From Bilabrum cf. latius (Eukaryota), in assembly GCA_965178125.1 (NCBI GenBank), contig OZ237776.1, positions 62,001 to 126,000 on the forward strand: a DNA stretch of 64,000 bases, in the 5' to 3' direction. Under the pieces are notes generated by a model. The model was not told the DNA's origin. It was given only the letters and a program-made list of their open reading frames with translations, and ran no database searches. A program made the translations under genes and the position numbers. Of this stretch, positions 9,101-58,700 are shown piece by piece. Every line of letters begins with the position of its first letter. Positions within the stretch are counted from its first letter, which is position 1.

Positions 9101-12100
9101 TCATGTTCGCCAGCGACTGCAGCACGTGTCGCGCCCGCACCAGCGAGGCAGACTCCACGGCGGGTTCCTGCAGGTACAGCGAGGACAGGCTGGGCCTCTG
9201 GGACTCCTCTTGGAGGAGCCGGCCCTGCTGCATCGGTGCACTCGTCACACCATCCAGTCTCCGAGCCTGGCTCGCACCAGCTGTCTCAGCTGCCAACGTG
9301 CGTTTATCCGACAGCGACAGGCACGATTCCGGCCTGGGGCACTCAATGAAGGCCGTCCTGCCTCGTACCCAGGGCACCCGCTGGTACCCCGAAGCTGCAG
9401 CCAGGGTGAAGGCAGACCCGCCCCTGCATCGAGTGGCCTCCTGGTGGCATGGCCTGCAGCCCCACTCGTGGGGAGGAAGGTGCGTGGTGAGGAACTCGCC
9501 GGCGGCGCACGTGGACGGCACGCCGGGGGTCCACGGTGAGAATGGGCCCGGGCCCGCCTCGCTGATGGACCGGATCCGGAGGGCCATGGGGCGGGGATCG
9601 ATGGCCGTGAAGGACGCGCGCATGGCGGCCAATCCACCGGTGGAGCTGGGCCTCACGCTGATGTCGGCCAGGTCGATCCGGAACGCCGCAGCCTCGTCCT
9701 CGTCTTGCCCCGACACGGCGCTGTCCTGCCCAGCGGATGCAGCAGGGATCGCACTCGTCACATTGGCCCCGCTCGCATCCAGCAGCCTGGACTGTATCTC
9801 GAATCCATTCAGACCCGCCAGCCCCTCCTCCACGATCGACACCCTACCCGGGTCGCGGAAGGCCCACCGCACCTCGAAGCGGTCGTTCCGCACCCTCCAC
9901 CCCTGGATCGAGCTGGCCACATCAGGCCATGGATCCCCGATCACACCGTACGTGAACACAGGGGCAGACTCCGGGTCGCTGCTGAGGCCCCCTCTCTGCT
10001 GCACCACCACCTGCAGCCCGTCGATCTGGTCCTGCTGCAGGTCAGGCACCGTGCACTCGATCGAGGTCTCGCCCAGCACCGCCACGTTCAGGCAATCGTA
10101 CGGCCCCAGCAGCACCCGAGCCACGTCATCGTCCTTCCTGCCCAGGCTGCTGCCCGCAATCACCAGGCGCTCCCCCGCCGTGGCCCCATTCGGAGCCACT
10201 GACGTCACTGCGGGCCGCCCCAGCGCGGTGAAGAACCGGTTGCGGGGACTCGTCTGCTGAGCCACCTGCACCTCCACCACGGCCCCGCCGGGCCAGCTGG
10301 TCCCATTCACGCCGGTGCACAGGAGCTCCGTGCTGGACACAAGGTGCACTGCACTGCAGGGCCGCCCGCCCACTGCCACACCCTCCACGTCGGACTGCTT
10401 GAATCCGAAGTGCACCCCGCGCACCGTGAAATCAGCCGACACCTGGGGACCAGTGAGGCTGTACGGCGGCAGGATCTCTTCCACCAGCGGCCGCTCGTAG
10501 CTGACGGTGGATTGCGTGGACAGCTGCGTGAAGCCGTCCGTCTGCTGCTGCTGCGGCTGCTGCTGTGCATCATCGCCTTGGTCCTGTTCTGAGCTCCCGC
10601 CCAGCGTGTGCACCTCCACCAGCACATCCACGCCCACCCCAGGCTCGCAGTAGGCCAGCAGCTCAGTGTCAGACACCCACATCACCACCCGAGATGGCAC
10701 ACCGCCCACCTCCACACGATCCACGGCCCACGGAGCCACTCCCAGCCCCTCCCCACGGATCTGAAGCAGCCCGGCAGACGAAGGCGCGCCCACCAGCGTG
10801 CGAGCGATCTAGCCCACATCGGCCGCATCCAGCACCACAGACGCACGACCGCTGGACGCCGCTGCTGCGCCCACCCCTGCCCGCTCCAGCAGAGCATCCA
10901 GCTCCTGCTTGGCAGTAGTGGCCGACCCAAGCGCCACCTGGGCCCGCCTCGCCGCCCCTGCCAGCACCGCATCCGCGCTGCCGTTAGACGGAAACAGACG
11001 AGGGCTCAGCACCTGCACCACCGGCCGACCCACCAGCAGCACCGTCCCGCCCGGGCTAGACTCGGCCTGCAGCAGACTCGACTCCTGCACCTCGTCCTCC
11101 AGCTGCCCCGTGGCGCTCTGGCCCCCGACGCTGAAGTGAACGGACACCAGCTGGAGCGCATCCTCGGGCAACTGGGCCGATGCAGCCGCTGTGGCTGCTT
11201 GCCAGTCCACCACCGTGCACTGCACCCTGGCAATCACGCTCTCCTGCGGGGAAGTCTCGCTGGCCCGGGTGCCGCGCACGGTGGCGTTGGTGCACGAGGC
11301 GTTCCACGCCTGCCCGTCCAACCGTATCACGCCGGCACCGTCACCCGTCACACCGTCCCACTGAGTCAGGGATGCACCCGCGTGGGTCACGTCCAGCAGC
11401 AGCTCCAGGCCGCTCTCTAGCAGGTAGGCAGCTGCACGGGGATACGTGCTGCTGCTGCTGCTGATCCCGCTGCTGCTGCTGTTGCTGGAGCCGGCTGCAT
11501 CGCTCCCGTTGGTGCTCGCGACAGGGCCCATGCCTGCCATGCCCGGGTCTGGGCCTCCCGCGAATGTGGCTCGGGTGATCACAGGGGCGGCATAGTCCAC
11601 GGCAGGCGCGGTGTCGATCGAGTTTTCGCCGTTCCGCACCGACACCACCTGCACCCGGTGGCCCGTACCCACCCCCGGAGGCAACAGGCACCTGAGCCGA
11701 GTGGCAGGCGCCAGCATCTCGAGCTGAGTGCAGGTGTACGGCCCCACTTGCACCCTCTCGATCGTGTCCACGCTGTTGCCCAGCCCGTTGCCCTCGATCA
11801 CGATCCACCCGCCATCGCCAGACAACCGCCCCTCAGGCACGCCATCCGCTGACTCGGGTGACGCGGCCTGCACCTGCACGGGGGGCTGGAACTGAAACGC
11901 GGTCGGGGCAACTGCTTCCCGCCCCGACAGCAGCACCCGCACGCTGAAGTCGCCGGGCGTCCACTCCGGCCCGATGTCCTCGCACTCCATCTCAGAGTCG
12001 CTCAGCACGCGCACCACGGGACACTCCTTGCCCGAGATCACCATCCGCGGGGAGGTGCCGTTGCCGCCTGTCCGAGCAGACCCGAAGTGCTGCCCCCGCA

Positions 12101-15100
12101 CGGTCACTCTGTAGGAAGACCCCAGGTCGTTGAAGATCGTGTCAGGGTCAACCACCACCGACTCGATCTCGGGAGACAGGAACCGCACCACGCCGGCTGA
12201 GCTGGGGTACACTTTGCCCCAGGGAGTGTGCACGGACACAACCCCCTCTACCCCTGGACTGGCCGTCAGCGTGCACTGCACCACGAAGTCGGACTCAACG
12301 GACATATTCGCGCACGGCGCCCCGTCCACGTCAATGCGGTCGATCAGCCCGCCCCCCAACGCGCCCAGCTGGATCCCCACCAGCTGCACGACCTGTCCCC
12401 CCCTGGGACTGACGAGTGACGGGTTGGAGCCGAGCACCCTGGGATTCACACGGGCCATCAGCTGGTTGGACGTCCATTCCACCACATGGGGCGGATCCAC
12501 GTTGCTGTCCCACACGCCCGCCTCGAGGCCTTCCCTCGGGTCAGACGACAGCTGCCTCCACTCCCGGGCGTGTCTCTGCGCCCTTGCTGCACCGTCTGCT
12601 TCCACCGCCGCATTCACCGCCCCCAGGGACCGCGACACCACGCGCACCTCGTCCGACTGCATCAGGTGAGGCAGCACGGAGCACCGCAGCTCAGTGGCAG
12701 ATTGCACCACCAGCGGGTCGCACCGCTGCCCGCCCAGATACACCGCCCCCACGTGCACCTTCATGTCAGATGTAACGAGTGAAGTCCCACGCAGGGTGAG
12801 GTTGAACTTGGTGCCGCTTACCTCGCTCTCGATCAGCGCGGTCGCATCCACGCTGGGAGGCTCCACGGCCTGCACCACGGGAGGCGGCAGATCCACCCAC
12901 GCGGGCTGCAGCTGGGACGCGTTGCCGGCTGGCTCAGACCCGCTGTCCTCCACCACGATCGAGGCGGTGTCCAGCCAGGACAGCCCGGGCAGGTGCACCG
13001 ACAAGGACGCAGGGCCACCCACCATGCCGGCAGGTGCAATGCACTGCAGCTAGGACCCCATCGATCCAGCCGTCAGATTGCCATCGCATCGATACGGGCC
13101 CAGCGAGCCGGTGACTTGTTGTCGCAGAGGAGTCACATTTGCTGCCTCCAGCTGCGTCCATCGGCCGATCAATCCACCCGTGGATCCATGCCGGTCCACA
13201 GGCGCAAGTACACCCGCATACCACCCGCCTCCAGAGCCCCAGCCCGCCCCCCGCACGTCCATGACCAGAGTCCCGCCGGCCCCCACACTCGCCGGCCAGC
13301 TGCTCCCGCTCTGCAGCCTCAGTGCCCCCTGCATGCCCACCGCCACGCACAGCACCATGCCAGGATCCGAGGGCGCACCCGCGATGGCTTGCCCGCTGGC
13401 CAGCTCACGAAGCACCAGCTCGCATGCCGCCGGGTCATCGCTCGACACCGTCAGTGCCCCGCCGCTCCCGCCTCCACTGCCACCACCAGACCCAGGCAGG
13501 TGCATCTGCACCTCGGCCAGACCCGGCAGCAGGGGCTATTCCGGGGTACACACCAGCACGGTCCGCGCCCCTGCATCGATGGCATGCGCGCTGGCCGTGG
13601 GACACCTGAGTCCACCTGCCCACACGTGCCCCAGCTCCTGCACCCTGCCCAGCTCCGATGGACGGGGCAGGTGCATTGCACGACTGGTCACCACGACCAG
13701 TCCATCGCTTGCACCACCGGGATAGACAGGCAAACAGCCGCTGGCCGAGCCTGCCCAATCCACACCGCCCACACCACCCGACACAGCTCCACCAGACGCC
13801 ACCACGCCCAGCCGGCCCCGGGACAGCAAGCACCCGGCCTGCGCCACATGCCACATCAACGCGCCCCCACCCCACCCCGATGCCGCATCAGCCGCGGCAG
13901 CCTCATCCAAGGCAGCCCCAAGAGCAGCGGCATCCGCGAGAGACAAGGCAGCTGCACCCATACCATCGCCCATTACGCTCTCGTTCAGCCCCTTGCACAG
14001 CGCTTGCTCGCTGCTGCAGTCCAGCGAGGCCCACTGCGCCTGTGACACGGGCAGCATCCAAAGAGGCCTCGAGTGCAGGCCCGTGGTGTTGGCCCTGTAC
14101 GCCACCAGCCCGCGCCCCCCACACCCCGGCGATGCCACCAGCAGGTGCACCTCCTGCTCGCCGATGGACGCGTTGGTCGCAACCAGTGTGACGAGTGCAG
14201 TACCCATCTCGCAGCCGGGGCCCACGCCCGCGGGGACAGGAGCCTCTACCCGCTCCGAGCTCAGGACGGCAACTGCCTCCGATGACGAGTTCTGGGTCGG
14301 GCCCAGCCGGCCATTGAGATCCACCCGCAGCTGCATCACGGCCCCTGCAGAGTCGTTGAAGCCAGGGGCACCCACGAACACGTCCATCGTGCGGTCTGCT
14401 CCGAAGCCAAGCAGCTCGATCGAGGCTCCGAAGCGGGATCGCTCGAACTGCCCCGGCCAGTGCCCGGCCAGCCGCAGCGGCATCAGGGCAGGAGATAGCA
14501 GCAGGTGGTCAGACACGGACATGGTCATTGCCCCGGCCTCCATCTCGCCCACAACCAGGTGCAGCATCACCACAGCCCCGAACCGCCTGTCCTCCCCCGA
14601 CAGCGACAGGTCCCTCCAGTCAGGCGCGCCCACCAGCATCGACACCTCGCTCGTGGCCTGCCCCTGCCCCTGCTCCCGCACCGGGCCCAGGTACTCGAGC
14701 GATGCCCCGAAGCTGTCGCCAGCTGCACCCGTGACAGACGATATCACGGCGATCCTGGTCCCATTCCAGGCAGTTATCGGGTTAGAAGTGCTGCTGCTGT
14801 TGGTGTTGGCTGTCACTAGATGCAGTGCATGCAGGTGCAGCTCGCCCTGCTGAGGAGCCCCCGCCGCCACCACAGGGGCATGCAGCCGCATGTTGCCGAG
14901 CATCGACCGGCCCAGGTATGCCACTGCTGCACCCAGCGAGACGGGCCCGCGGGCAATCGTCGCATTGGATACAATCACAGTCGGCAGAATCGAATCACCT
15001 ACATCCCCTGCCCCATCGTCATCCGCTCCTTCTCCCGCTGTGCCCGTCCCCAGCCGACTCACCCACAGCTGCCCCCTCGATGCATTCCCCACCAGCACTG

Positions 15101-18100
15101 ACACAGACCCATCCCCCGCGCCCAGAGACCCCAGCGAGCACACGGCACTCCCGTCCAGGACCAGCTCCATACCGGCGGCGCGTCGATCCACAGCAGGTGC
15201 ATCCGATCCATTCAATGCCCCGACCCTGACGTGCAGCCGTCCCCTGCTGACCCAGCTGTGATGCCCCGTCCCTGGGCCCGTGCCCGCCTGTCTGTCCACT
15301 TGCAGGGATTCGCCTTCCATGAGAACGAACGTTCCTTGGCTGGCCTGCAGGATTCCGATGGAGGAATCCAACGAGGCAGGGGATGTCGAGGATGGCCTGG
15401 ATACAGTGCCATGGACGGGGAGGAGTCGATGGGCAGGTGGGGTGATGGGAGGGTCTGACGCGGGGGCGAGTGACAGGACCCACACCGCACCACGCTTGCT
15501 ATCAATTAATCCACCGTCATCATCTCCTTCTGCTCCCACAGCCATGTCCGGTACCCCGTTGCCGTCCAAGTCACCAAGAGATGCAACAGATATGCCAAAC
15601 CCATCACTGTTGTCCAACTGCCCCGTGAAGCCCCCTTGTGTGCTTGAGATCTTCTGGTGCCGCTTCACCGTGCCATCAGATCGCAGAAACAGTACCCACA
15701 CCGCACCTCTGTTAAACCCACTGTCATCATCCTCATCTGCTCCCACAGCCAGGTCCGGTACCCCGTTGCCGTCCAGGTCACCAAGAGATGCAACAGATGT
15801 GCCAAGCCCATCATTATCGTCAAGCTGCCCCGTGAAGCCCCCTTGCGTGTCGGAGATCTTTTGGTGCCGCTTCACCGTGCCATTCGATCGCAGGAACAAG
15901 ATCCACACCGCACCTCTGTCATGCCCACCGTCAGCATCCTCATGTGCTCCCACAGCCATGTCCGGTACCCCGTCGCCGTCCAGGTCACCAAGAGATGCAA
16001 CAGATATGCCAAAATAATCACGATCGTCAAGCTGCCCCGTGAAGCCCCCTTGCGTGTCGGAGATCTTTTGGTGGCGCATCACCGTGCCATCGGATCGCAG
16101 AAACAGGATCCACACCGCACCTCTCCTGAATCCACCGTCATCATCCCTACGTGCTCCCACAGCCAGGTCCGGTACCCCGTTGCCGTCCAGGTCACCAAGA
16201 GATGCAACAGATCTGCCAAACCCATCACTGTTGTCCAACTGCCCCGTGAAGCCCTCTTGCGTGTCGGAGATCTTTTGGTGCCGCTTCACCGTGCCATCAG
16301 ATCGCAGAAACAGTACCCACACCGCACCTCTCGTAAACCCACCGTCATCATCCCCATGTGCTCCCACAGCCATGTCCGGTACCCCGTTGCCGTCCAAGTC
16401 ACCAAGAGATGCAACAGATATGCCAAACCCATCACTGTCGTCAAGCTGCCCCGTGAAGCCCCCTTGCGTGTCGGAGATCTTTTGGTGCCGCTTCACCGTG
16501 CCATCAGATCGCAGAAACAGTACCCACACCGCACCTCTCGTAAACCCACCGTCATCATCCCCACGTGCTCCCACAGCCAGGTCCGGTACCCCGTTGCCGT
16601 CCAGGTCACCAAGAGATGCAACAGATGTGCCAAACCAATAATCACGATCGTCAAGCTGCCCCGTGAAGCCCCCTTGCGTGTCGGAGATCTTTTGGTGGCG
16701 CATCACCGTGCCATTACTTTGCACCCAAGTCCGCAGCTCCACATGCGGCCCCGTCCCCCGCTGCAGATACACGCTGCCACCCTCTACTGATCCTACTAGC
16801 TGCAGCTTGCCATCGCCAGTTAAATCAATCACGCAGTTTGCCCTGCCACCCGGCAGTGCAGCAACACGATCACACGACCCACCCCATGCACGACCACCAA
16901 CAAGGCAGCCATCCAGGCCGACACATGGTACGTTGCCGAACTCAAACACCACCTGATCGTCGCTTACATCCACCAGTGACATATTCACAAAGCCCTGCGG
17001 CGCCACTGCCCACCCCTGGATAGAGTCCTCCTCCAGGCGCACCTCGATCGAGTTGGTCCCACTCGTCACCATGGCACACCTCGACTGCACCACTGGGCCC
17101 CCACAGGACGTCGCAGGGAAGGGGGGGTCAGCCAGCAGGTGGGGGGCCCTGCCATCGCACCCGTACACGTTCGCGTTCCTGGGCCAGAACCGCAGCAGCA
17201 GGTCCACATGCATAGTACCGTTGAGTCCATCTGCGTATAGGTCAGCCCACGCCACTCGCTTGACGGGGAATACGCCCCGATGGGAGTCCAGCAATCGACC
17301 GCCAGCCACCAACATGAAGTGGAACTCCTCCGCCTCTGTCCCACTCATGCTCGAGCTGTACGGCAGCTGCACCCGCACGCTGCCCTGCAGGTATCCGAGG
17401 CGCAGCGTGGCGCTGGAGGAAGCACATCCCGTCTGGGTGAGGATGACTCTCCTAATGTCATGGGAGACAGTCACTGATGCGGCAGAGTACATAGATCCGT
17501 TGACCTGGTGTGCCTCTGTGCCTGTGCTCCACGGGTCCTGCAGCAGGGCAGGATCGATGGTGTAGGTGCCGTTGAGGACAGGCACGGGGAGGACGCTGCG
17601 GGCTGAGCTGTGGAGCTGCAGCATCCACACCGCGCCTCGATTGGTGCCGCCATCATCGTCATAGGTTGACCCTACTGCTAGGCCCAACGTTCCATCGCCG
17701 TTCAGATCTAACACAGATGCCACGGACGATCCAAATTGATCATCGTTTCGCAGCTGCCCCGTGAAGCCCCCTTCCGCGCCCGATATCTTTTGGTGCTGCT
17801 TTACCGTGCCATCCGATCGCAGGAATACGATCCACATTGCGCCACAATTGTTACACCCATCGTCATCCCGAAATGCCCCCACGGCCATGTCTACCGCACC
17901 ATCGCCGTCCAAATCGCCCAGAGATGCGACGGATGTTCCAAACCAATCATAATCTTCGAGCTGTCCTGAGAAGCCCCCTTCCGTATCTGATATTTTCTGA
18001 TGCCGCTTCACCGTACCGTTTGGGTACAGAAACAGCACCCAAACTGCACCTCGGCTGATCCCTCCATCGGCATCATTCCAAGCTCCAACTGCAAGCTCCA

Positions 18101-20209: not shown

Positions 20210-22090
20210 TCACGCGCGACCCCCCCCGCCACCTGGGTCCGCCTGTGGACCCTCCTGCATCCGCTCCACCGGTGGACCCTCCTGCTCCACCGGTGGACCC
20301 AACGGCTCTATCTCCCTGCCAGCCCCTCCCGCAGCGAGCCCCCAGCCCCATGACAGCACCAGCATCACCACCGCGAGAACGATGCAGGCCAGGCACAGGC
20401 GCAGGCGAAGCGGCAGACGGCCACATCGGCCCGACACGCGCACCGTCTCACGCAAGCAGCACGAACCGCACGACGCAAGGACACCGCACCACGATCCCGG
20501 CCCTGCTCCAGCACCCGCGCGATCTGGCGAGCCCGACCGACTCTCGCCGCTCGTCACACCAGCATCACTCGTCACACCGCCGAAGCACCCGGCGAACGAA
20601 TCACGCGCCGCCTCTGCCAGGGGTGCCGCCGCCCACCGAATCTCGGCGAGCAGCCCCTGCCCCTCGGGGTAGGACCCGTCCGCGGGCAGCTCACTCGTCA
20701 CACCAGCAAGGGGTCCTCCCGCCGGGGCTGCGACCAACGACCCGCCGGGCCCCGCGCTCGCTCCACTCATCACACCGCTGCCGCTGGACTCGGGCAGCTC
20801 CAGCACAGAGGCCCCCCCGGCCAGCCGTGCGGCCAGCGCACGGCTCTGAGGCGATGCCTGCCCCGATCGTGAAGATGAAGACAAGTCGCCGTCGCCACCT
20901 CCAGCGCCCCTTCCCCCCATAGGCAGAGGGGGCGGGGGTGGGGCCAGGAGTCCCGCCTGCGCCAGCCACCCATGCCCCGCAGAAGCAGCCCCTGCGGCCC
21001 AGCCCCACATCTGTGCGCCCACGTCTGCACCACCGTGCGATGCACCCTGTGTGGACCCGGCCTCTGCACCCCCCACGGTCCCATCCTCCCTTCTGGCACC
21101 TGCATGGTGCGCACTCGTCACACCGTTGTTCCCCATGACCTCCGCGATGCTCACGGTGCGAGGGGGTGCCTGCGTGGGCGTCTCCTCCTCGACCGCACGG
21201 ATCGCACTCGTCACACCCGATGCGCCGGGCCGGCGCGGCGCTGCGGTGGGTGTCCGAAGAGCGCCCCCCCCGGCTCGTGCGTGCTCCCAGGGGGGCGGCC
21301 GCACCGGCGACACTCCTGCACCAGCACCTGCATGCAGTGCACCTGCTTCGCTGGATTCCTGCTGCTGCTCACCCACCTGCACCTCTTCGCGAGAGAGCGT
21401 TCCGGCGCCGCGCACTATGTTCCGCACCCCAGCCGATGCCATGTCCCGCTCCAGGAGGGACAGCACATCTTCATCTTCAGTGTTTGCGCCGCCCCGCCGG
21501 TGGCTGCCAGGTGAGCCAATCGTGGGGCCGGCTGGGCTTACTCCACTCGTGGCGCGTGGGGACAGCAGGCTGAGAGCGTGTCTGTCGCCATTGCTCGCTC
21601 CTAGTAGAGATGCGCCTTGGGTGATGCTCGGTGCACTGCCGCTGTCGCTGACGGCGATGCCTTCTCCAGTGCCAGTGCGCGAGTGAGCCTGGGAGGCAGC
21701 GACAGGCTCACTTCCATGCTGCTCGGAGTGAATGGAAGGCAGCCTCGGCGGAAATTGCGGAGACCTCTGATACCCTGGATTCACTTCTACCGAATGGTCC
21801 CGCTCGGGAAGCCTAGACGGCGGGACTGACGGCGCAGGTGCTTGGCTGGACAGTCCGACGCCAGCTGGCAGAGCACTTTCCAGCTTTCGTTTGTCGTTGC
21901 GCTATCGAATTGCATCTCTCCTATCATCTTGATCTTTCTTTGCGCTCTCTTCTGCCTGCTATCGAAGCTTGTCCATGTCTGGAAGCAGCGACACACTCGA
22001 GAAATCCATGCCTTGCGTGAGCGATGAAAACCCAGAAAACCCAAATAGGGAGCCCCCGGCTTGGCCACCTGAATTTGGTTGGCCACTCAT
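20210..22090 (-). CDS. Uncharacterised low-complexity protein (~626 aa) with a short charged N-terminal helix and a C-terminal TM segment
   Basis: ORF 20210-21784 extends upstream in frame through TAGs at 21902 and 21959 to ATG 22090 (MSGQPNSGGQ...DKLR[TAG]QAEESAKKDQDDRRDAIR[TAG]RNDKRK). It ends at TGA and has the hydrophobic stretch LCLACIVLAVVMLVLSWGWGL. Confidence 0.7.
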
Positions 22091-22218
22091 GATCAGAAGA
22101 AGAAAATCACTCCAAATACGACCCGTAAGGCATACTTAGATGTGATCCGCTCGAAATCAAGTTGCGTGCAGATTCGATCGTGTAAATCCGTTCGGGTCTT
22201 TGTCAACATTTTACCAGC

Positions 22219-22960: not shown

Positions 22961-23492
22961 CTGAGCACGGGTCTCTGGAGCCCGGCGCAGAGTCGGGTCT
23001 GTCGGGGCGTGGCCGGCGCGTGCAAACTGAATTGAATCCTTCCATTATGAATCGATCGGACTGAATGCACCCAGTAAACAATGCACCTGATCGGCATTTT
23101 GATGCACACTGCCCGGCGGGAAAGCGAGTGTGCAGCGCTGGATATGTGCAGAACGTGCCACGATGGTTTTGTCTGAAGAAAAACCAAACCCAACTCACCG
23201 ATTCAATTACTCACTGCATCCACAGCCAACCGTCCTTTAATCCCCCGCGAAAGCCTCATCATGCCACATGCTCGCCCAATTCCAGCGCTACACGCGCCTT
23301 GCCTGCCCTGCAACATCCACCATCCACCTCGCATGCTGGTACAACAGCACCATGCCGCATCGCTACCAGCGAAAACGAGACAAATTGCGAATAACGGATA
23401 TCCCACCTCGCCGCCCAGCGGCAGCCTCTGCGCTCCCCCCTAAAACGCCGGACGAAAATACTCAGCTCTCGCTGCTCGACTCGAGTCGCTCT

Positions 23493-26309: not shown

Positions 26310-26863
26310 GGTGTGACGAGTGCGTTGGCGGGTGTATGTGTGACGAGTGTGTATGTGAGGGGATTCGTGTGCTGTAGTATCCCGGGTCGGGTGTTCTTCC
26401 ACCCGATCGCAGTGGATGTGTCTTGCGTGTGTATTTCGAGATGTAGAGTGGTGGGGAGGTACGGTGTGATGAGTGGAGTGGTGGGGAGGCGAGGCGTTTC
26501 TTTGTCCCGAGCTAGACTCTCCTTGATGTGCCCTGTGTTTGGGGCGAAAGGGAGAAGGAGAGGGGGGGGGGTGTGGAAGAGCTCGTGGCCGGGCGTGGGA
26601 GCTTGGGAGCGGTGTGGCGTGTCTGGAGCGGCGAGGTTTGACCGGTGCGGTGCGGTGTGACGAGTGAGGCGCGGTGTGCTTGGGAGCAGTGCGGTGAGGA
26701 GGAGCGGCGCGGTGAGGTGGGGAGGTGCGGTGTGGCGAGTGGCGTGGTGTGATGAGTGCGGCGTGGTGCGGGGGTGTGTCGGGGTGCGGAGGTGCGGTGC
26801 GGGTGGTGGCGTGGCGTGAAAGGGAAACAAAACACAAAAAACAAGCAAACAAACAAACAAACA
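26310..26863 (+). repeat. G/T-rich low-complexity region downstream of DDX6 (GCGGT/GTG-rich, carrying GTGTGACGAGTG copies) ending in an (AAAC)n tract
   Basis: Strong strand asymmetry and short imperfect repeats are visible directly; the overlapping ORFs are compositionally biased and show no recognisable motif. Confidence 0.7.
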
Positions 26864-27374: not shown

Positions 27375-29065
27375 TCATCGTCCCCGCCCCCGCCCGCGCC
27401 CCCGGCCCCGTCCTCGCCCCGACCGGCCCCGCGACGACCCCGCCCCGCCGCTCGCCTTCTTCTCCTTCTTCTCGGGCTTGGGGGCCTCCATGGCCGGGCG
27501 CTTGGCGCGACCCACCGAACGTTCCATGACGGTTCCGTACTCCTCCAGCAGCTTGGAGGCGCTCGAGGGAACAAGATCCGGGTGGGACTCGGCCGTGGCT
27601 TTTGCGCCCGGGGTCTTGCGTTTCGATTCCGGGTACTCGGTGGTGGCGGCAGCGGCAGCCGGCGTCTTGCCGAGGCCCGCCCCCCGGGGGCCAGAGAACA
27701 ACCGAGCCCCCAGAACCCACGCGCACTGGGCGTCCTTGTTCCCTCCCGGAGGAATGGCGGGCTGCACCACGTCAGCGTGCGTCAGTAGGACCGGCACCGG
27801 TCGCACGGTATCGGTCTCTGCGTTGTACACCACGAATACCACGTCCGTGTCCCCCCCCGGCGCTCTCTGCCCCCTCGGCCCCGTGATGCATTCCCAGGTG
27901 TGCAGCACCACGTCAGCCACCTGTGTGAATGAGGTGGCATCTGTCCCCAGCAGAAAGTCCTCCCCCGCTCGCAGGCCGATCTGGTCCGCCACGGAGCCCT
28001 TCTGGACCGACTGCGGGTGTGACGAGTGGGCCGGAGCGTGTGACGAGTGAGTTGGAGTGTGCGACTATCGCTCCGTGCTTGGAAGGAGCGCGATGGCGGT
28101 ATACACGAGGAGGGGGGCAGGAGAGCAGGACCAGCGCCAGCGCCATCGCCATCGCCGGGTCGGGAGATTCTGACGCTGACACAAACTTGGATTTGCCAGG
28201 CTGTGCACGCAGTACAGTCTGCTTCACCATTTTCTTCAGGACATGTTCAGCCTGCCACCGCCATTCAGGCATGCGAGCGACAGAGTCTTGTCTCGTCTCA
28301 CCTCTACCTGCACGCAGCGGTCGAATGCCGGGTCACCACCCTTCCCGTTCGCAAAATAGAAATCGTACCGTGCTACCACACCTAAGAGTCCGTTGCCGCC
28401 CCACCCTCTCCTTGGGCGCACCGTGACAGCTGCGCCGCGAGGGCTTGAAGAGCTGGCAAGTAGTGCATGACTGAAATGTGCTCCAGTTGGAGGCACGCTC
28501 ATGCTCGATGAGCACCACGTGCATTAAACGACTCGAGAAATACAATGTTATAATAGTCTCTGGCTCCCGCATATAACTTGAGTCGCGCCCAGGTCGCAGC
28601 ATGAGGATACAAGCGATGGCGATACAGAGTCAACCGATCACCCTTCTCACTTCTTGTTTCACGCGTCTTCGCATTATATAGCTCAACCTTTGCATCCTTG
28701 CCCTCAAACTCTCTCATTACCGCTGCCAGTGTTCTCTTTTCTCCATCGAGTGTCTCCGAGCCAATGACAATACAGTAATCGAGGAATGGCACCATGCCGG
28801 CCTCCGCCGCAGGGGAGCCCTTGGCCACGTCAAGGACGCGATGGCCCCATTTTAGGTGTTTATTGTCGTCGTAAGTTGTGATAAGCTTATCCACCAGGTC
28901 TTCCATCCCGCAACAATTGATGATTGAAGCTGCTTGCTGGGAACCTGCGGAACCTGCATCATCATGGCCGCCATCTGATTGCGCGGCGTCGCATCCGACT
29001 TGAGCACTTCGCCGTCCGCGTATTCCATCGTCAACAGCGGTGATCTTGCTAGCGACTACACTCAT
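27375..29065 (-). CDS. GRASP55/65-like Golgi reassembly-stacking protein (tandem PDZ-like domains); exons 28651-29065, 28302-28429, 27375-28010; start may be ATG 28906
   Basis: WGHRVLDVAKGSPAAEAGMVPFLDYCI...VELYNAKTRETR-TVTVRPRRGWGGNGLLG...VQVE-SVQKGSVADQIGLRAGEDFLLG...VVYNAETDTVRPV. Two GTGAG...CAG introns keep the frame; TGA stop. Confidence 0.85.
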
Positions 29066-29104
29066 TATAGGAATCTCATAGGCCCATTAATCAATTGCAT
29101 TCGA

Positions 29105-46732: not shown

Positions 46733-49700
46733 TCAGACGGGGCTCAGCCCCACCATGCAGTGCATCCTCTCCACCCAGCTCCCCCCGAACCCCATAGCAA
46801 TCAGGCTCTCGTGGGCCGCGCGCCCCACCGCGGCCTGTCCCAAGGGCACACCGTACAGGGCGCAACCCCCCCCCGTCTGCGCCAGGCAAACCCCCGCCGC
46901 CTCCACCGCAGTGCCCTGCACCAGCGCATCACCCGCACTCGTCACACCCTCCACAATAAGCTCCGCCCCTGCCCTGGCCCCCTCCAGCCTGGACCGGACC
47001 TCCACCTCGGCACGAATCGCCTCGATCGATGCCGCCATGGCCCCTGCCCGTTGTGCCCTCGCGCACGCACTCGCGCACTGGTCCTCAGAGGTAAAGGAGC
47101 CGAGAGCTTGCAGCCTCATCGCCTCTGCCTTGACCGCCAGCAGAACGGCCGTCCCGTTGGAAAGCCAGGCTTCCACCGGGCCGCGCCTCAGGCCAGTGGA
47201 CAGGTGAACGGATAGCTCGCGGCCAGCCAGCAGGTTCCCGTCGATGTCCACCACCTCGTGCGCCAAACCGGAAATGCCCTCGATCGCCCGAGCAAGAGCG
47301 TGACCCACGGATCGGAGCGCCCAATCCACCGATGGATGCGCGGGCGCCGGCCCGTCGGCCACCACCTCCCCACCGTCCCCGTGGTACCCCAGCCCGGCGA
47401 TGGCGTGGGCCATGATCTCGTTCTCCTCCGAGAGCTCCTCTCCGCTGAGATCCAGCGCAGCCAGCTCGTCGAGACACGTGCACGCCAGGCCATCAAGCTC
47501 GGCGCCTTCCGTCTGCTCCGGCAGCTCTGCGGGGATCGACGGCAGGGAGCCGTTGCCCCAAAGGGGCATCGATTCGCCCATCCTGAGCTCAACGGCTAGT
47601 TTTGAGACCCTCCAGTCGTCGCCTGGTGCGATCCTCGGCCTCAGCACTGTGTCTTGTTCCCTGTCGCACTGCAGCGCCACCTAGATCGGAGTCGATGATG
47701 CCTCACCGGGCACCTCCTCGCCCTCGTCGTCGGCTCCAGGGAACACAAGGGCGTGACCCTGCGACTGGGGCACCCGTCGGGCCGTGCTCTCCAGCAGCTG
47801 CATCGCATTGCGGGCGTCCTCAACGGCACCCGCCGCCGCGTCGCCCAGCAGATCGACCTGCCCCTGAAGCGCGTCAGCAACCGCCTGTGCCCTACCCAGG
47901 CTCGTCTCCCCGCCCGCCCAAGGCTCCGCCAGCAACACCCCAGGGGTGCCTCCGACGGCGATTGATGCCGCCCGCATCATGGCCTGCTGCCTCGACCCGC
48001 TGCCCAGAGTGCCCACTGGCCTCAGCGAGAAACGGTCCGCGCTCGCTGCGGAACTGGCGCCGCGCATCCAGAGGAAGGTGCCCTGTCCGCCGCTAGGTGC
48101 AGCACCGACGTGCAGTGCACCCTGCTCCGCCAGCGCCTGCTCCGTGATCGCCTCTTCCGTCGCAAGCTGGCCCTGCCCGCTGCCCGCCCCGGCTGCGTGC
48201 TCGATCAGGCGGGCGAGGGCAAGCGCGGTGGCATTCGCGTCTGGAAGGTGCGCGCAAGCCGTGCGGTTGGCGGACCTGCCCTGCCCGAGCAATCCACGCC
48301 CGCACGCGTGCTTGAGCCCAAGCACCTCGAGCACCTCGTCGTGGTCGTGCGCTCCGATGGCTGCAGTCCCCGACTCGGTGCTCGCGTTGGGTGCACCGCC
48401 TTGCAGCGCGCCGCTCTCCAGACCGGCCTGCAGCAGCACGCTCGCCCATCTAGATCGGACCGACGCGATCGCCCGGGAGTGGGCCGCTGCCGTGCTTGGC
48501 GCGGTTGCAACCAGCACGCCGAGCGACGACGATGATGATGACGAATGCGATGAGTGTGGGACGGCCAACGGAGCGATGGGCACCGCCGACTGCGATCCAC
48601 CGGTGGATTCCCTCGCAGCCGTCCTCCTCCTGGACTCGAGCTCCTGCGGGGACATGCCATTCAGCTGAGAGACCAGATGTCCCGGTGGGCTGGCTTGGTC
48701 TGTCAGCAGGACGGTGGCTCTGTACTGTTCCCTGTGGGCGGTGGCATTGGGCTGGTTGGGCGGGAGGGGCAGCACGGCAGGCGCTGGCAGGCACGCGGGT
48801 ACGAACCGTTCCGCGTAAAAACCTTGCGTCATACGGTCAATGACGCGGAAGCGGCCCAGCGGCACATGCGGCACCCTGAAGTTCCTCTGCTCCGCCCCCG
48901 GCTCTACCCATCCCACCGATGTGAAGCTGGTCACTAGCGAACCCATCACGCTGCGAGCGGGCACGACTGCCATCGCACCAGCGGGTACGTTGTTCGGGCG
49001 AGATATGCCGGCGTCACGGACGGTAGAAGCCACGAGGAGCTTGCTGCTGGCTGGTGTCCTGGCGCTCCCCGGCTGTGCCACCACGCTGGCGTTCCAGCCA
49101 CCCCCGTCGCTCGGATCGAATCCACCGGTGGACTGGCTGCTGGGCAAACCCTTGCAGGGCGCGCTTCCGGTATCGCACCCGGGACCCTCACCGAACCCGG
49201 TCGGCTTGGGCACCGCCAGCCCGGCGTGGCCTCCGTCTGCCAGCGGCACGGGAACTCGTCGCGTGCACGCGATCCACCCATCGGAGGCCCTGTCGTTGGT
49301 GCCGCCGCGCAGGTAGAAATCAGGCACCTTGGATGCCGCCGGATCGCCCTGCACTGCGCACCCCGCGTCCTGCATGTGGGTCTCCATGCACGTGGTCTCG
49401 TCCCCCGAACTAGCCGTTGAGCTTGCGCACGTGCCCGCCGATGGTAGCTGCCCCAGAGCCTCGAGCTCTGGCAGCCCGCTATCCCGCACCGAGGGCATGG
49501 GTTGCGGCCTGCCGTCGCACAGCCCGCACGCGGCTACCTCCGGCATCCAGTTCTGTGACGGCCCAGGGGAAGGTCCTGCTGCTAGGCTCCATGCCGGACC
49601 GCGCCTGTCCTCCCCAGCGGCGGGAATCTCCACTGTCTGCGGCCCGATCATGGATGCGTTGGACAGCCCGGGCCCGCCGGCCGTGGCTCCCACAAGCAAA

Positions 49701-52700
49701 GACCAGCGGTAGGCCGATTCGTTGAACTGGGGCTGGTGGGCCTGATCGCCCTCACCCGTCCAATCGACGGGACTCACGGCGAGGGCCCGGCCCAACTCGC
49801 TGGTCGTCAGACTTCCACCGGTTGCAACCGGTGGTGTGGGCAGCTGCGCGCCGCCCATGGCGTGCATCATCGGCTGCCAGCTCAGCGCACTCGTCACGAT
49901 GCGCCCGTCGGATGGGTCCACATGCATCGAGACGGTCGCGGCCGCCACCGTTCCGTTGTTCCCCGCCGGTCCTCTGTTCCCCGGAGCGGTTGCAACCAGT
50001 CCCAGGGTCAGCCGGCCGTCGGGCAGCCGGGCGGAGCCCAGCCCGGCGAGGGCAGTGCCAATGCGGGAGGACCCCGAGAGCGGCACGCGCTGCGGCAAAT
50101 CGCCCCGAACCTCCACGAGGTTCGCGCCAAAGGTTCGCTAGGACTGGCGCACCGTGACGAGTGCCACGGTTCCGTTGTTGGAATCCATTCCAGGGGCGCC
50201 GATCGCCAGCACGGGGAGGTGGCCGGTCCCGGGATTGAGACCCGCCACTGCGAGCGACGCGCCGAATTGCGCCCCGGCGGCATCGAACGCGCTGCCGGAC
50301 ACCGGTTGCAACCGTTTGCTGCCAAGGTACATGACCCAGTCGTTCCGGGCCCGCAGCGTCATCAGATACACGTACCCGGGCCCTGTGTCACCAGAAGATC
50401 CCGCGCCCACTGCGAGCAAGGACACACCCTCCTCTGCATTGTTGGGTCCAGCAGGCACCGATGCCAGTGATACCCCGAGCAGCCCGTCGGTCGGCAAGCC
50501 CTGAAGCTCGGCAGGCGCTGTTCCCTCGTCCAATGCGTCAGTGCTTTGGAAGAACCTGGGGCTTGCATCGGATGACATGGCCGCGAGTGGATGCCCGCCC
50601 TCGTCGGTTGTAAGGTGCAGCTTCACAAATACCAGATTGCCCTGGCCCGCGGCGAGTGGAGAACCGATTGCCACCCACACGCCGCTGCCCGACGGGCGGC
50701 CGTTGCTATCGACCGGCCGGCCAAGGCTGGCGATGGCAGCCCCGAAGCGAAATCCCGCGGCTACCGCGCTGTCCCATAGGGTCGCCGAGGCAGGCGCCAG
50801 GTCGTGCAGACCCTCGCCGAAAACGCGAGCCGTTTGGAACGGTGCCGTTGGAGTGGTCCGATGCAGTACTGCGATCCTTGACGTCGTGGGGCTGCCGGTG
50901 ACAAGCCACTGCCCCGCCGGGATCGATCGAACGAGATTGTCCACCCTGGTCGACCTGGCCAAACCCGTGGTAGGATCCACCTGCTCTCCGATGAACGCCA
51001 TGGCCGCACCAAAATCGTCCTCGGTGGCTAGCTGCGTCCCATTGGGATGGCCACCCACTGCAGGCATTCTCTAGACGGGGCGCATGAACCCAGCGAGACT
51101 CCTGACCTCGGGTGACAGCCTCTATGATGGGTCGATGGGACCAAGCTCGCCCAGCCTCTGGCCAGAAGTGATGGGTCTGGCTGCGCCCATCCTGCTGCCT
51201 AGCGGCGCGAGGTCGCCGGTTTGGCCACCGAAGTACTGCAGCTAGGTCGCATCGGGGGCCAGGGCATACGCAAACGCTCCGTCCCTGGCTGCAATGTCCT
51301 CGTAGACCACCGCCCCTACAGCACCAGGAGCCGAGACAACCATGCCCGGGTTGGCCGCAATCAGTGGCATCGCATTGCCGGGAACGCCACAGGCGGTAGG
51401 GTGTCCAAAGTCGTACAGCATAGACAGATCCCTGGGCAGAGTGCCCCTGTGCACCTTGGATCCGAGCCGACGGTTGTACAGAGCCAGCACCTGTGTCGGC
51501 GATGGGCCCGGTCCTGACCAGCCCCTTAGTTCTCCGATCTCGCCCATAAAAGATCCAACGGACGGCGCCGCGCGGCGAGGAACGTTCCCTGCGGGTTCGG
51601 CGTCTAGCTCGGTCCCGGCGGAGGGGTTCACGTCACATTCGCGTGCGTCCACGCCAGCGGGCCGGGCGCCGATGATCGGCACCAGGGTGATGTTCCTTGC
51701 TTCCGGATGCCTGGCGCTCGCGTCGGGCAGCTTGAGGGAGCCAAGAGGACTGCCCGCCGGTATGGCCACCCTAGTGGATCCACTCGTCACACCGGGGGAC
51801 TGTCCCAGCCAGGACGCCTCCGGCCACCCGTCCACGTACAGCCTGACCAGCTGCTGATCGGCCCGTTGTTCCCTGGGGAACACGAAAGCCAAGTGATGCC
51901 AGTGCCCATCGGCCACGGACCGATCCCCAACGAACCTCCAGCGAAGGTTCGCTGACATGGCCCCGGAGCCGTTGGTGGCCGCCAGCTCCAGCTCGGGCTT
52001 GCCCTCGTCGTCCAGCCCGAAGTGGATGAAGCCCATGCGGGAGGGAAGTGCAGCGCACGACGGCACGTGCCCGTCCACAGGAAGATTCGAGTAGATGCTG
52101 CCGCCTGCACTCGCCTCACCCGTCGAGCCAGCGCGCGAGCTGCTCCAGTCCACCGCCCGGGAATCCACCCGGACATGCGCCTCGATCGCGGACAGAGGGC
52201 CCCGGCCCTGAGGCAGCCCACTCGTCACCAGCACAGGGGCCTCTAGACCGTCCCTCCCCATGGGCGCCCAGCTGCCCTCGCCCTCCCTTTGCAGGCGGTT
52301 CTCCACGCGCCCCTGCTACCTCTTCCGGTTTCCACGCTGGGGAACTGCGCCGTGGCGCTGGGTCTCCTGCGTGACGAGTGCGCCGGACATGTTCTGCCTG
52401 GGCGAAGCGAGCTGGCCGGGCAAGGGTGGGCTTTGGGGCGCAAAGGCCTTGGAAATGAGGGGAGGTGGGAGCTGTCTCGCCGGTCCCTGCATCTGCTGCA
52501 GCACGGACGTGTCCAGTCCCGGGATCGATTCCCGGAGGCGGTCTACCGCCGTGGACCCGCAGACCTCGGCCGGCCCTTCGATGCCACCTAGGGGGCTGCA
52601 CTGTAGCTTAGCGGGCGAACCGACTGATACCAGACTAGCGGAACCACGCGTGCCGTCGCATTCAAACTGCGCGGCGCCGGGGCTGGACGGAACCACCTTT

Positions 52701-55700: not shown

Positions 55701-58700
55701 GCCGTTCATGTCGCCGGCACTCGTCACACTAGCACCGAACTTTGACGCCGACTGGATCGTGCCGCCTGGGACGCCCTCCTGCCCGTCCCTGATCACGCGC
55801 ACGGATCCGTTCACCACTGCACCGCTGGAACTAAGCCCAAAGTAGATAACCGCGTCACTATCGAGTGCACCGACAACCAGATCCACAGCGTGTTGGGGGG
55901 ACCGAGCCGGTATGGCAGCGAGCGAAAATCCAAGGTAGTTTACCATTGGGCTGATGGTGCTTAGCCCAGTGCTCTGCGAAATCATTGTGGTCGACGCGAC
56001 GGTGTCGTTGCCGTTCATGAGGTGGACAAACACGACGCCACCGTTTCCGAAGCCACTCGTAGCCGCAAACGCTGTCACTGCGATGTCGCCGAGCCCGTCA
56101 CCGTCGATATCCCCCAGACTGCTCGACGCCTGCCCGTACCTGCCGTTCTCCGGGAACGTTCCGGTGGGAATGCCGTTGAGCCCGTCCTGAAGCACCACTG
56201 TGTTGGTCACAGTGCCGTTGGCGTCCACGCGCAGCACGAAGGCTCTGCCGACCTTGACCACGCCTCCCAGATCGATGAACACCTGCCCTGCGATCAGCCT
56301 TGGCGTGTCCCCGTCCTCGCCACTCGGCTGGTCAAACCGAGACAAACCGGTGCCAAACCCAGATCCCGTCGTTGGCGTGATTCCAGACGCGTCGATATTC
56401 CCACCAGTGCCCAGATGGTACTCGGTGTAGCTATCCACGGTCCTGTCGGGGTTCATGGCTAAGACTGCAAACGAGCCAGCGCTGGAGCCGCCCCCGCTGG
56501 CCTGATCGAGAAGTACGCCCATGTCCTCGACGGAGTCACCGTTCATGTCTCCGAGGGAAACGGCATGGCGGCCCATGCGGTCGCCTGCCCGCGGGAAATT
56601 CAAAGGCAAGCCAGACTGCCCGTTGGCGATCTTGACCATGGAGACCACAGCACCAACCGGGGCAGGGGATGGGGAAGCACTCGGGGTCACGCTCGGAGTG
56701 GGCGAGGCGCTGGGTGACGGTGTGACAGACGGTGTCGCCGATGGACTCGGAGCCACACCGCCCGCAAACACAACAAACACAGCACCCCTATTCGACCCCC
56801 CGGTGCTGTCTCGCCTGGCGGTCAAAAGAAGGTCCGTGCGGCCATCGCCGTCCAGATCGCCTAGGGCACACCCCGCACTCAGCATAGAGCCACTCGTCAC
56901 CTGTCCCGAGATACCTGGCGTCGATGTGCTGAGTTTGGTGAAGCTCTTCACGGCATTGGTCGCGGTCCCGGGGTTGAGTCGGAGCAAAAACACGACTCCG
57001 CTGTTCGTTCCGGCTGCGCCGTCAGTTCTGGCGCCGACCAGCAGATCCTCGATTCCATCGCCATCCATGTCACCAACGTTCGCCACGGGGAATCCGAAGT
57101 ACGAACCGCTAGAGATTGTGCTTAGGGGCAGCCCTTCATGCCCGTCTTTAATGGTCACCACATCGCCTATCACGCCGGACGCGTTCAGCCTGGCGATATA
57201 GAACGTATCGGAGGCAGGTGTCGCGTACACGAGATCCACGGGGTTGCCGGGCAGCCTGGGCGCCAGAGCTGCGAGCGAGTACCCTGCGTTGCTCCCTGAG
57301 GATGGCAGCCCTTCCCCGACGGTTTCGGATAGCCGGATATAGTCTCGGACTGTGTCGTTGGTATCCATGAAGAGCACAAAAATGGCACCGCTGTCCGCCG
57401 ATCCAGCATCGGCCAGCGGAGCTCCGATTGCGATGTCGTTGAGACCGTCTTCGTCGAGATCACCGAGATCTCCGGTGATGGCCCTCCCGAAAATGTCCCC
57501 AGCGCCGATCGTACCGGTCGGCAAGCCGCCTACGCCATTGCCAATCAGGACTGTGTTATTGACAGTACCGTTGGGTCGAAGACGAAGTACAAACGCGATT
57601 CCGCCATCGGTTACCCCGCCCACATCGCCGTTGAAGGCGCCCACAACGAGCCTCGGCTGGTGACCATCATCCCCCAACGGCTGGTCAAGACGGGATGGCT
57701 CGGCACCAAAGTACTCTAATGTATTGAAAGGGGTATAGTCGAGGCCGCCATCTGCGGCGCTTATCTTCTAGAAGTGCCTTACGGTGCCGTTTCGGCGCAT
57801 GAACATGATCAGAACGGATCCGCTGCTGCTTAGAACGTCATCGTCGTCGATGATATGCACTGCAACGTCCACGATTCCATCACCATCGATATCCCCGATG
57901 TTCCCTGCGCCTTCCCCAAATCCATCATCGTTGGCAAGCAGGTCGGAAGGCAAGCCACCGGTCCCACTCGCGATCTTCGACACGTGCAGGGGCATCCCCG
58001 GGGCGGCGGGAGTCGGGCTTGGGCTGGGGCTGGGACTCGGCGTAGGACTCGGTACCGCCCCGCCCATGAATCCGATCACTACCGAGCCCTGTTCTGCGCC
58101 GCTCTCACTGTCCTTGTAGAACCCAACGGCTACTTCAGGCCTGCCGTCACCGTTCATATCGGAGAGGACCGCTATTCCACGCAGAAATGAGCTAATGGGA
58201 GCCACGCCGGAGAAGGCACCCTACTCCACGGTGACGATCTGCACGGATTTGAGGGGGACAGCGTGTCCTCCTGGGTTGAGATAGAGGATGTACATGGCAC
58301 CCGAGTTGGCGCCGCCCGCGGGATCTGTGGTACCAGCTGCGATCAGATCCGCGACGCCATCGCCATCCAGATCACCTGCAAGGGTGGTTGGATACCCGAA
58401 CCCAGATCCGCTGGTAATCACGCCTGTCCCGAGGCCGCCCTGCCCGTCAGCTATCACCTCCACGGACCCGTTGATGGTGCCGTTGTGGGTCAGCCTGGCC
58501 AGGAGGATGGCATCTTCGATCTCAGCGGAAATCACCAGGTCCACGGGATTTCCGGCAAACCTGGGCGGCATGGAAGTCGCTTCCCACCCCAGCTAGGTGA
58601 TCGTAATCGGCAGCGAGTCGAAACCCTCCCCCGAAGCCTGTGACAGCCGCTTCGCGCTACGCACCGTGTCGTCACCGTCGAGGTACAGCACGAATATGGC

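Follow-up and report, generated by a model that had tools for sequence, protein, structure and literature searches.

A short exact word recurs far above chance in genes, untranslated regions and introns of a GC-rich eukaryotic locus

A word of 12-14 bases in excess of chance

Why would one exact word of a dozen bases be found again and again along a stretch of eukaryotic DNA, whichever gene, strand or frame it falls in? This question is raised by a 64-kb stretch of contig OZ237776.1 of Bilabrum cf. latius (assembly GCA_965178125.1, positions 62,001 to 126,000), here called the window, in which a sequence-only reading had singled out the 12-mer GTGTGACGAGTG and its 10-mer core, GTGACGAGTG. The 16 exact 12-mers and 27 exact cores that it had located were recovered position by position, and its rough estimates of about 0.01 and 0.15 copies expected by chance agree with 100 dinucleotide shuffles of the window, which held on average 0.02 and 0.15 copies and never more than 1 of either. 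When trinucleotide runs and poly-G are set aside, GTGTGACGAGTG has the highest count of any 12-mer in the window. Relative to an order-3 Markov model, exact matches are enriched 1353-fold (16 observed versus 0.01 expected), matches with one mismatch 40-fold (15 versus 0.37) and those with two mismatches 3-fold (17 versus 5.6), and at three mismatches the ratio is 0.8 (44 versus 53). Coding DNA has 21 cores in 51.3 kb and the remainder 6 in 12.7 kb, which amounts to equal density. A word of 12-14 bases is present, hundreds of times above chance, in genes, untranslated regions (UTRs) and introns (Table 1).

To define its extent, we aligned 46 isolated copies from the window and from the related contigs described below. 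The consensus reads R-G-T-GTGACGAGTG-C, that is RGTGTGACGAGTGC, with R, G and T before the core in 40/46, 36/46 and 37/46 copies and C after it in 28/46. The 12-mer first proposed is therefore real, but its limits were drawn too narrowly, since R-G-T before the core and C after it are also favoured. Outside the consensus of about 14 nt only codon-phase composition is visible, and the 46 copies show no further similarity. Its reverse complement differs from the word itself, which is thus not a palindrome.

The window is a GC-rich eukaryotic locus (GC content 0.56-0.68) whose long frames are broken by TAG alone. When TAG is read through, open reading frames (ORFs) of 4288, 2796, 3229 and 1944 codons appear, the ORFs ending in TGA and about 50 in-frame TAG codons falling within 17,094 codons (for example 7734-7736, 10809-10811, 13050-13052 and 25851-25853). 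The sole TAG of a DDX6/Dhh1 homologue aligns with a Gln of yeast Dhh1; TAG is a sense codon, most likely for Gln. The Amoebophrya with an AT-rich genome and all three stop codons recoded, as described in PMC12005148, is a different organism from that of the window. Pfam models identify a CHD-like remodeller, DDX6, a CPT1-like acyltransferase, an FG-GAP/TIG giant, an F5/8-C/Kelch giant and a DUF4200 protein, and neither Rfam families nor tRNAs were found in the window. Copies had earlier been placed downstream of the DDX6 stop, in introns and in intergenic DNA (33541). The three exact copies past the DDX6 stop lie in its 3' UTR and are spanned by contigs of three runs, 28017 and 28038 lie in an intron of a minus-strand gene and so are antisense to it, and 33541 falls between two convergent transcripts; most copies, however, lie outside introns, because the giant ORFs run on when TAG is taken as a sense codon.

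Four public runs from three studies supplied contigs that were mapped to positions 19000-38500. One run, X1, is a DNA run; the kinds of the other three, X5-X7, are guesses (X5 is marked as probably DNA), and only contig coverage and bridging were used. Contigs of X5-X7 provided at least 11 usable joints, with ends GT..AG or CT..AC, that are missing in X1. All 11 mapped introns start with GTRAG and end with (C)GCAG. Contigs of X5-X7 cover, without differences, the copies of the word in the gene at 20210, those of the CPT1 gene and those of the DDX6 3' UTR, and hence these copies are not spliced out. In two introns, 28011-28301 on the minus strand and 30362-30543 on the plus strand, a pair of reverse-complement copies or near-copies sits at the end, the last of them separated from the 3' splice site by 6-8 nt (..CTCGTCACAC(A)CCGCAG, where the intron ends), and the first of these introns also starts with GTGAGACGAG, a near inverted match to the word. 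Such paired copies could belong to a branch or pyrimidine region, or could hint at intron gain from inverted copies. As general splicing signals we rejected the word at the 5' splice site, with which 0/11 mapped introns start, and its reverse complement as a branch site, found near the 3' end in only 2/11. At 20565 and 20706, contigs of X7 turn to unrelated sequence within 3 nt of two word copies; these loose ends suggest that other loci share stretches of at least 31 nt, for example GGTGTGACGAGTGATGCTGGTGTGACGAG, present in locus L052 as well.

Copies of the word are found beyond the window too. Metagenome contigs were scanned for two copies lying 3-33 nt apart, which returned at least 120 loci, of which about 100 were dropped before counting as unrelated simple minisatellites (units like GTGACGAGT, GC 0.36-0.73). 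A viral scan gave two loci, each one local GT-rich minisatellite. At least 21 contigs from three metagenome records resemble the window; with L064 and L113 removed as duplicates of L108 and L013, the set used here, the relatives, comprises 19 non-redundant contigs among the matches listed (101,033 nt, GC 0.53-0.62). Their long ORFs are rich in in-frame TAG, with 30 in one ORF of 2708 codons, and encode ordinary eukaryotic proteins such as a HECT ligase, an SMC protein and a TPR protein. They contain at least 37 separate core loci versus 1.1 expected, of which 19 are the arrays through which the scan had picked these contigs, and here too the word has unrelated flanks and is mostly read as GVTS(A/D/G). 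Exact and one-mismatch copies stand at 16:15 in the window and at 64:8 in the relatives, at least 38 of the latter exact copies being ascertained by the search itself. GC at third codon positions is 0.57 in the relatives versus 0.75 in the window, and TAG is about three times as frequent (7.8 versus 2.7 per 1000 codons). Because both measures differ from those of the window, the relatives represent, as judged from their sequence, another species that keeps the same exact word. Searches with blastn and tblastx revealed no region orthologous to the window in any of the loci listed. That the word is seen in four runs of three separate studies, and again in independently assembled metagenomes, also shows that it is not an adapter.

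Nucleotide level, strand and origin of the copies

Codon-aware nulls were built on 10 ORFs that, when TAG is taken as Gln, make up 51,282 nt of coding sequence. The 21 coding cores compare with a mean of 0.71 after synonymous-codon shuffles (maximum 5 in 1000) and of 0.10 after codon-order shuffles. Val-Thr-Ser (VTS) is spelled GTGACGAGT in 14/21 cases, where codon usage predicts 1.7%, and this spelling includes AGT, a rare Ser codon (7.3% of Ser codons in the window's coding DNA). The signal sits in the nucleotides and not in the amino acids. The four translations reported earlier, GVTS, LVT, GDEC (30861) and HSSR (30968), are all real, and the claim drawn from them, that the word does not depend on amino-acid composition, is borne out by the synonymous shuffles. 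An excess over codon-aware and Markov nulls had been set beforehand as a check, and in the window that excess stands.

The strand on which copies lie is accounted for by what codons tolerate. If codons are independent, the VTS frame is expected to hold 0.040 cores, the Cys-Asp-Glu (CDE) frame 0.021, the TGA frame 0 and the three antisense frames jointly 0.023, which predicts a sense:antisense ratio of 2.7:1. Coding cores in the window stand at 15:6, or 2.5:1, and those in the relatives (contigs among the matches listed) at 43:15. Relative to its own null, each orientation in the window's coding DNA is enriched to a similar degree, antisense about 260-fold and sense about 250-fold. Antisense copies are spread over their three frames roughly as the null predicts, the frame in which the word reads TGA is never used in the window, and sense coding copies fall in the VTS frame in 14/15 cases in the window and 41/43 in the relatives (among the matches listed). 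Non-coding transcribed DNA also holds both orientations, sense in the DDX6 3' UTR and antisense in two introns. Since antisense copies are themselves enriched about 260-fold, the force acts on double-stranded DNA rather than on mRNA or protein. The occurrence in both orientations described earlier thus amounts to a word that is strand-blind once coding tolerance is allowed for.

We then asked how individual copies arose, by aligning the CPT1-like protein with 10 homologues. Copy 34706 lies in a 57-residue insert missing in 10/10 homologues, so that its origin is not readable there, and near-copy 35216 also lies in a lineage-specific insert. The antisense copy 36367 (SLVTY) aligns without gaps to 9/10 homologues, the tenth (P0017) having no residues at that place, and the one-mismatch copy 34838 (ASVTRVF) aligns without gaps to 10/10 homologues reading S/A-S-M-TR-L/I-F/Y. 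At 34838 a nearly invariant Met has been replaced by Val, a change that moves the DNA toward the word. In an ungapped, conserved protein context there is no room for an insertion of 12-15 nt, and on these alignments at least two copies arose in place, by substitution. Copy 55718 lies in a repeat-like FGASVTSAGDMNGDG, similar to the FG.SVASLGDLDGDG units found in the first giant ORF, and is likewise not what an inserted unit of that length would give. The context of copies is rich in small residues, a weak effect (0.50 versus 0.446, P = 0.04).

Flanks of the 46 isolated copies show target-site duplication no more often than shuffled flanks do, the best of 75 combinations of offset and length giving 4-5/46. 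Three pairs of inverted copies are spaced by no more than 300 nt, and 3/8 antisense copies have a sense partner at most 300 nt away, which is within density expectation (by estimate, P ~0.16). Together with the unrelated flanks and the copies in ungapped conserved protein, this agrees with the earlier claim that ruled out a transposon remnant. In the window and the relatives alike there are short tandem arrays, their periods being 15-42 nt; divergence of word versus spacer in tandem pairs was left unused, as unit boundaries are ambiguous. In a CPT1 orthologue (P0121, 66% identity over 577 columns) 0/1 exact copies is found in the same place, and in an orthologue of the 20210 gene (P0241, 33% identity over 520 columns) 0/3. 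VTS is absent throughout both proteins, and P0121 retains the ASVTRVF stretch. With 0/4 copies shared in two orthologues, there is weak indication that copies lack positional conservation. Had the copies come from a single old burst, common to two species of such unlike codon usage, more decay should be seen.

The main word also has company. When k-mers enriched in the window and also in the relatives were compared without bias, three companion words emerged, with unrelated flanks and mostly in coding DNA. One, CCAGGGAACA, is present 10 times in the window and at least 34 times in the relatives; counted as (C)CAGGGAACA, it has 34-37 copies in the 101 kb of relatives (among the matches listed), in differing frames (QGT, REQ), and CAGGGAACA occurs 10 times in the window's coding DNA versus 0.81 after synonymous shuffles. 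An argument from rare codons for CAGGGAACA was dropped, as AGG is the commonest Arg codon (33%). The palindrome CGGTTGCAACCG, with core GGTTGCAACC, has 6 copies in the window and 9-10 in the relatives, and the palindrome TCCACCGGTGGA has 6-8 and 2-4 (relatives' counts among the matches listed); in the window's coding DNA, GGTTGCAACC stands at 6 versus 0.14 and CCACCGGTGG at 8 versus 0.46 after synonymous shuffles. A further word, GCGCGGCGCC, is marginal in the window and stands at 24 versus 0.6 in the relatives (among the matches listed). Because the relatives were not selected for those words, the companions are independent evidence that the lineage carries a small repertoire of genomic words. 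At 49813-49836, an (A)TCCACCGGTGGA(T) palindrome is nested around CGGTTGCAACCG (TCCACCGG-TTGCAA-CCGGTGG).

Table 1. Copies of the main word and of its companions in the window
Feature	Position	Strand	Context
Exact 12-mer	9239..9250	-	sense, giant ORF 6120-18986(-), GVTS
10-mer core	9752..9761	-	sense, giant ORF 6120-18986(-), (N)VTS
Exact 12-mer	14186..14197	+	antisense to giant ORF 6120-18986(-), ALVT
10-mer core	17060..17069	-	sense, giant ORF 6120-18986(-), (M)VTS
One-mismatch copy	20548		18 nt from exact copy 20566
Exact 12-mer	20566..20577	-	sense, ORF 20210-22135(-), GVTS; within run X5 contig
Exact 12-mer	20692..20703	-	sense, ORF 20210-22135(-), GVTS
Exact 12-mer	21112..21123	-	sense, ORF 20210-22135(-), GVTS
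Exact 12-mer	21205..21216	-	sense, ORF 20210-22135(-), GVTS
Exact 12-mer	26311..26322	+	sense, DDX6 3' UTR, begins 2 nt past stop TGA; within X5, X6 and X7 contigs
Exact 12-mer	26338..26349	+	sense, DDX6 3' UTR
One-mismatch copies	26464, 26730, 26747		sense, DDX6 3' UTR
Exact 12-mer	26655..26666	+	sense, DDX6 3' UTR; within X7 contig 24429-26762
Exact 12-mer	28017..28028	+	intron 28011-28301 of minus-strand gene; reverse complement ends 6 nt before 3' splice site
Exact 12-mer	28038..28049	+	intron 28011-28301, 21 nt from copy 28017
10-mer core	30861..30870	+	sense, ORF 30350-32935(+), (G)DEC
10-mer core	30968..30977	-	antisense, ORF 30350-32935(+), HSS(R)
Exact 12-mer	31788..31799	-	antisense, ORF 30350-32935(+), LVT
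10-mer core	33541..33550	+	between two convergent transcripts
Exact 12-mer	34706..34717	-	sense, CPT1-like ORF 34074-37421(-), GVTS; in 57-residue insert
One-mismatch copy	34838		CPT1-like ORF, ASVTRVF
10-mer core	36367..36376	+	antisense, CPT1-like ORF, SLVT; ungapped aligned stretch
Exact 12-mer	46936..46947	-	sense, ORF 46733-55123(-), GVTS
10-mer core	49888..49897	-	sense, ORF 46733-55123(-), (I)VTS
10-mer core	50154..50163	+	antisense, ORF 46733-55123(-), ALVT
Exact 12-mer	51781..51792	-	sense, ORF 46733-55123(-), GVTS
10-mer core	52219..52228	-	sense, ORF 46733-55123(-), (L)VTS
10-mer core	52371..52380	+	antisense, ORF 46733-55123(-), ALVT
Exact 12-mer	55718..55729	-	sense, ORF 54309-63998(-), SVTS inside FGASVTSAGDMNGDG
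10-mer core	56891..56900	-	sense, ORF 54309-63998(-), (Q)VTS
(C)CAGGGAACA	4684, 5552, 35782, 36439, 40634, 47655, 47737, 48726, 51867, 57899		unrelated flanks
CGGTTGCAACCG	48503, 49820, 49988, 50304, 54683, 63327		all coding, two 3'-most giant ORFs
(A)TCCACCGGTGGA(T)	9634, 20266, 20287, 48597, 49122, 52782, 63445, 63613		coding DNA

What may maintain the word

In our judgement the chances are about even that RGTGTGACGAGTGC is a lineage-specific genomic word that is read on double-stranded DNA and upheld by selection on its density or by a conversion drive. We arrive at this reading because the same set of properties has been reported for bacterial uptake sequences: PMC1939737 describes many copies in ORFs, origin by point mutation and not by insertion, an excess graded by mismatch load and a preference for unconstrained coding parts, and attributes this set to molecular drive. 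Applied to the nuclear genome of a TAG-recoding eukaryote and at least one related species, the proposal is that a word of about 14 bp would be kept at very high density. Copies would arise where they stand, through point substitutions and through local slippage that produces short tandem arrays, at permitted sites: coding segments under loose constraint, in the frames free of the word's TGA and of rare residues, as well as UTRs and introns. A force on double-stranded DNA would hold the copies exact, single copies turning over and the word staying constant between species. Most likely, a conserved sequence-specific DNA-binding or DNA-processing activity would recognise the word, whose abundance would be upheld either by selection on density, not position, or by a bias of conversion or repair towards the exact word (molecular drive), a behaviour known from bacterial uptake sequences, Chi and HIP1. 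Recognition by a protein, and drive or density selection as the maintaining force, are what we infer from the pattern of copies.

A bolder form of this reading, which we consider possible but doubtful, is a nuclear counterpart of uptake sequences and HIP1, in which exact words (the 14-mer, CCAGGGAACA and the two 12-bp palindromes) would be continuously written into the genome, coding DNA included. The writer would be sequence-biased conversion or repair, or the words would serve as marks of self-DNA read by a DNA-processing machine. In one concrete form, tightly bound sites would escape meiotic breaks and be over-transmitted by gene conversion, the hotspot paradox reversed. The DNA-level signal that the sequence-only reading had envisaged is upheld in so far as it is nucleotide-level, strand-blind and unconnected with a transposon. 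Its suggestion of a ciliate breakage signal fails, as a DNA contig of X1 (19000-32976) runs unbroken and without difference across 16 cores, 11 of them exact 12-mers.

Hyper-abundant exact words, such as uptake sequences, Chi and HIP1, are a classic and partly unexplained feature of bacterial genomes. The DNA uptake sequences (DUS) of Neisseriaceae and uptake signal sequences (USS) of Pasteurellaceae are like the present word, as described in PMC1939737, in being exact, non-palindromic words of 9-12 bases that are dense, lie in ORFs, show no chromosome-wide orientation bias and are common to related species. Unlike it, they are bacterial and depend on biased DNA uptake in natural transformation, the host here being a eukaryote with spliceosomal introns, and they are reported to be denser outside genes, whereas the word in the window is equally dense in coding and non-coding DNA. 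We know of no DNA uptake route in such a eukaryote. Two traits of uptake sequences were found here, an exact short word far above chance, also in ORFs, across the 64 kb and the 101 kb of relatives, and an origin by substitution in weakly constrained parts, seen in three copies or near-copies. HIP1 (GCGATCGC) is described as hyper-abundant, located in genes, conserved across a phylum and of debated function (PMC4390886, PMC13756078). This cyanobacterial word shares with ours its abundance within genes, and the companions CGGTTGCAACCG and TCCACCGGTGGA are palindromic as it is; it differs in being an 8-base palindrome linked to orphan methyltransferases, where the main word here has 12-14 bases and is not palindromic. 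Chi of E. coli (GCTGGTGG), also short and exact, is over-represented in coding DNA and acts through density and not position. Chi is polar to replication and read by RecBCD; the orientation of the word here follows the coding strand as codon tolerance predicts, and the composition profile of the window has no clear switch.

Several points weigh against a word upheld by drive or density selection. The host genome is sampled by 64 kb only, and the 101 kb of relatives were chosen for holding a tandem pair of the word. The ratio of VTS to CDE frames, 14:1 in the window and 41:2 in the relatives, exceeds the 1.9:1 predicted. Homotypic clusters, with six copies or near-copies within 450 nt of one 3' UTR, would suit a regulatory element equally. 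The CHD-like ORF, the coding part of DDX6, the DUF4200 gene and ORF 41840-45862 are free of copies over 13.4 kb where the mean coding density would give about 5.5, and this could reflect gene-specific use instead of constraint. The test of turnover is weak, as the organisms of P0121 and P0241 may not carry the word at all. Finally, the window alone cannot separate drive from selection.

An element acting in RNA would explain part of the pattern. In this case the transcript word GUGUGACGAGUG would be bound by an RNA-binding protein (for example of the PUF type, UGUGA...) or by a small guide RNA and would govern how mRNAs bearing it are stabilised, exported, localised or translated. The sense orientation of 18/27 cores, the one 3' UTR with three exact and three one-mismatch copies, all sense, the fit of exact 12-mers to guide base pairing and the retention of copies in contigs with spliced joints all speak for it, and a 3' UTR cluster of a word that begins UGUGA is like the mRNA elements of PUF proteins. 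However, the 15:6 bias towards sense in coding DNA is what codon tolerance predicts, and antisense copies, which such elements do not explain, are equally enriched relative to their null. The copies in introns (two exact and two near-copies) are antisense, two companion words are palindromic and hence carry no strand information, and orthologous positions lack copies; we therefore regard an RNA element as unlikely. Another alternative is a mobile or self-copying relic: a tiny transposon, an introner or a minisatellite seed, inserted many times and in coding DNA often in multiples of three, would have left its conserved end or core as the word. Short tandem arrays, the location of copy 34706 and near-copy 35216 in lineage-specific CPT1 inserts, and the three inverted pairs within 300 nt are consistent with such a relic; so are the 2/11 introns that end with paired reverse-complement copies, one of them also starting with GTGAGACGAG, an arrangement that recalls introners and the terminal repeats of miniature inverted-repeat transposable elements. 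Those elements differ from the word in that no internal sequence is shared here beyond 14 nt, target-site duplications are no better than in shuffled flanks and most copies lie in continuous ORFs kept in spliced contigs. With at least two copies in ungapped conserved protein sequence and inverted pairs no commoner than density predicts, we think there is rather little chance that this explanation is right.

The homotypic clusters, and a set of several words of which two are palindromic as for dimeric factors, would also be expected of an ordinary transcription-factor site, an enhancer or silencer that in a compact genome happened to fall within gene bodies. Nevertheless, the word is as dense in coding as in non-coding DNA, and 0/27 cores lie in the 5' intergenic stretches 22136-24578, 37422-39301 and 45863-46732 (about 2 expected, a weak point). 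Exact matches dominate, unlike the usual degenerate sites of such factors, positions are not conserved in orthologues and the host genes are functionally unrelated, which together leave this reading improbable. We give next to no credence to a Gly-Val-Thr-Ser protein motif under selection, or to an assembly artefact such as an adapter or polishing error. The former would account for the VTS frame of nearly all sense copies, but not for codons fixed far past usage, a rare Ser codon among them, nor for copies on the antisense strand, within a UTR or an intron, or between two genes; an artefact is contradicted by the presence of the word without differences in the four runs and in independently assembled metagenome contigs.

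In the literature searched, we found no prior description of an exact 12-14-mer saturating eukaryotic coding DNA. Exact-string searches for the word and four companion strings, with supplements not covered, returned primer-like matches only, and a search joining HIP1, uptake sequences and eukaryotes returned bacterial work only; over-represented eukaryotic oligonucleotides are mentioned in general terms in the abstract of PMC1939737. If drive maintains the word, there would be a sequence-specific conversion bias able to overwrite codons, even that of a nearly invariant residue; if selection does, the word would mark a genome-wide DNA-reading machine not yet known. Under either, the word would limit which codons and which protein sequences this lineage can use, and it offers a simple signature for spotting DNA of the lineage in metagenomes.

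Other features of the locus

In the distal DDX6 3' UTR (26630-26820), word copies are embedded in G/T-rich, C-poor sequence with GGTGNG-like units, followed at 26820-26870 by an A/C-rich tract that may separate two convergent 3' ends. Between two convergent genes, positions 33683-33774 show a word depth of about 300-fold in X1 versus about 18 elsewhere, and form a high-copy repeat. Tandem arrays at 15511-16714 (unit 207 nt, 5.8 copies) and 17881-18642 (216 nt, 3.6 copies) encode FG-GAP repeats of a giant ORF. Where two overlapping giant ORFs meet, at 54906-55032, a 20-nt unit, AGCAGAGGACACGGGGGGCT, is repeated 6.3 times with 97% identity. In addition, the window contains 13 runs of at least 12 G or C.

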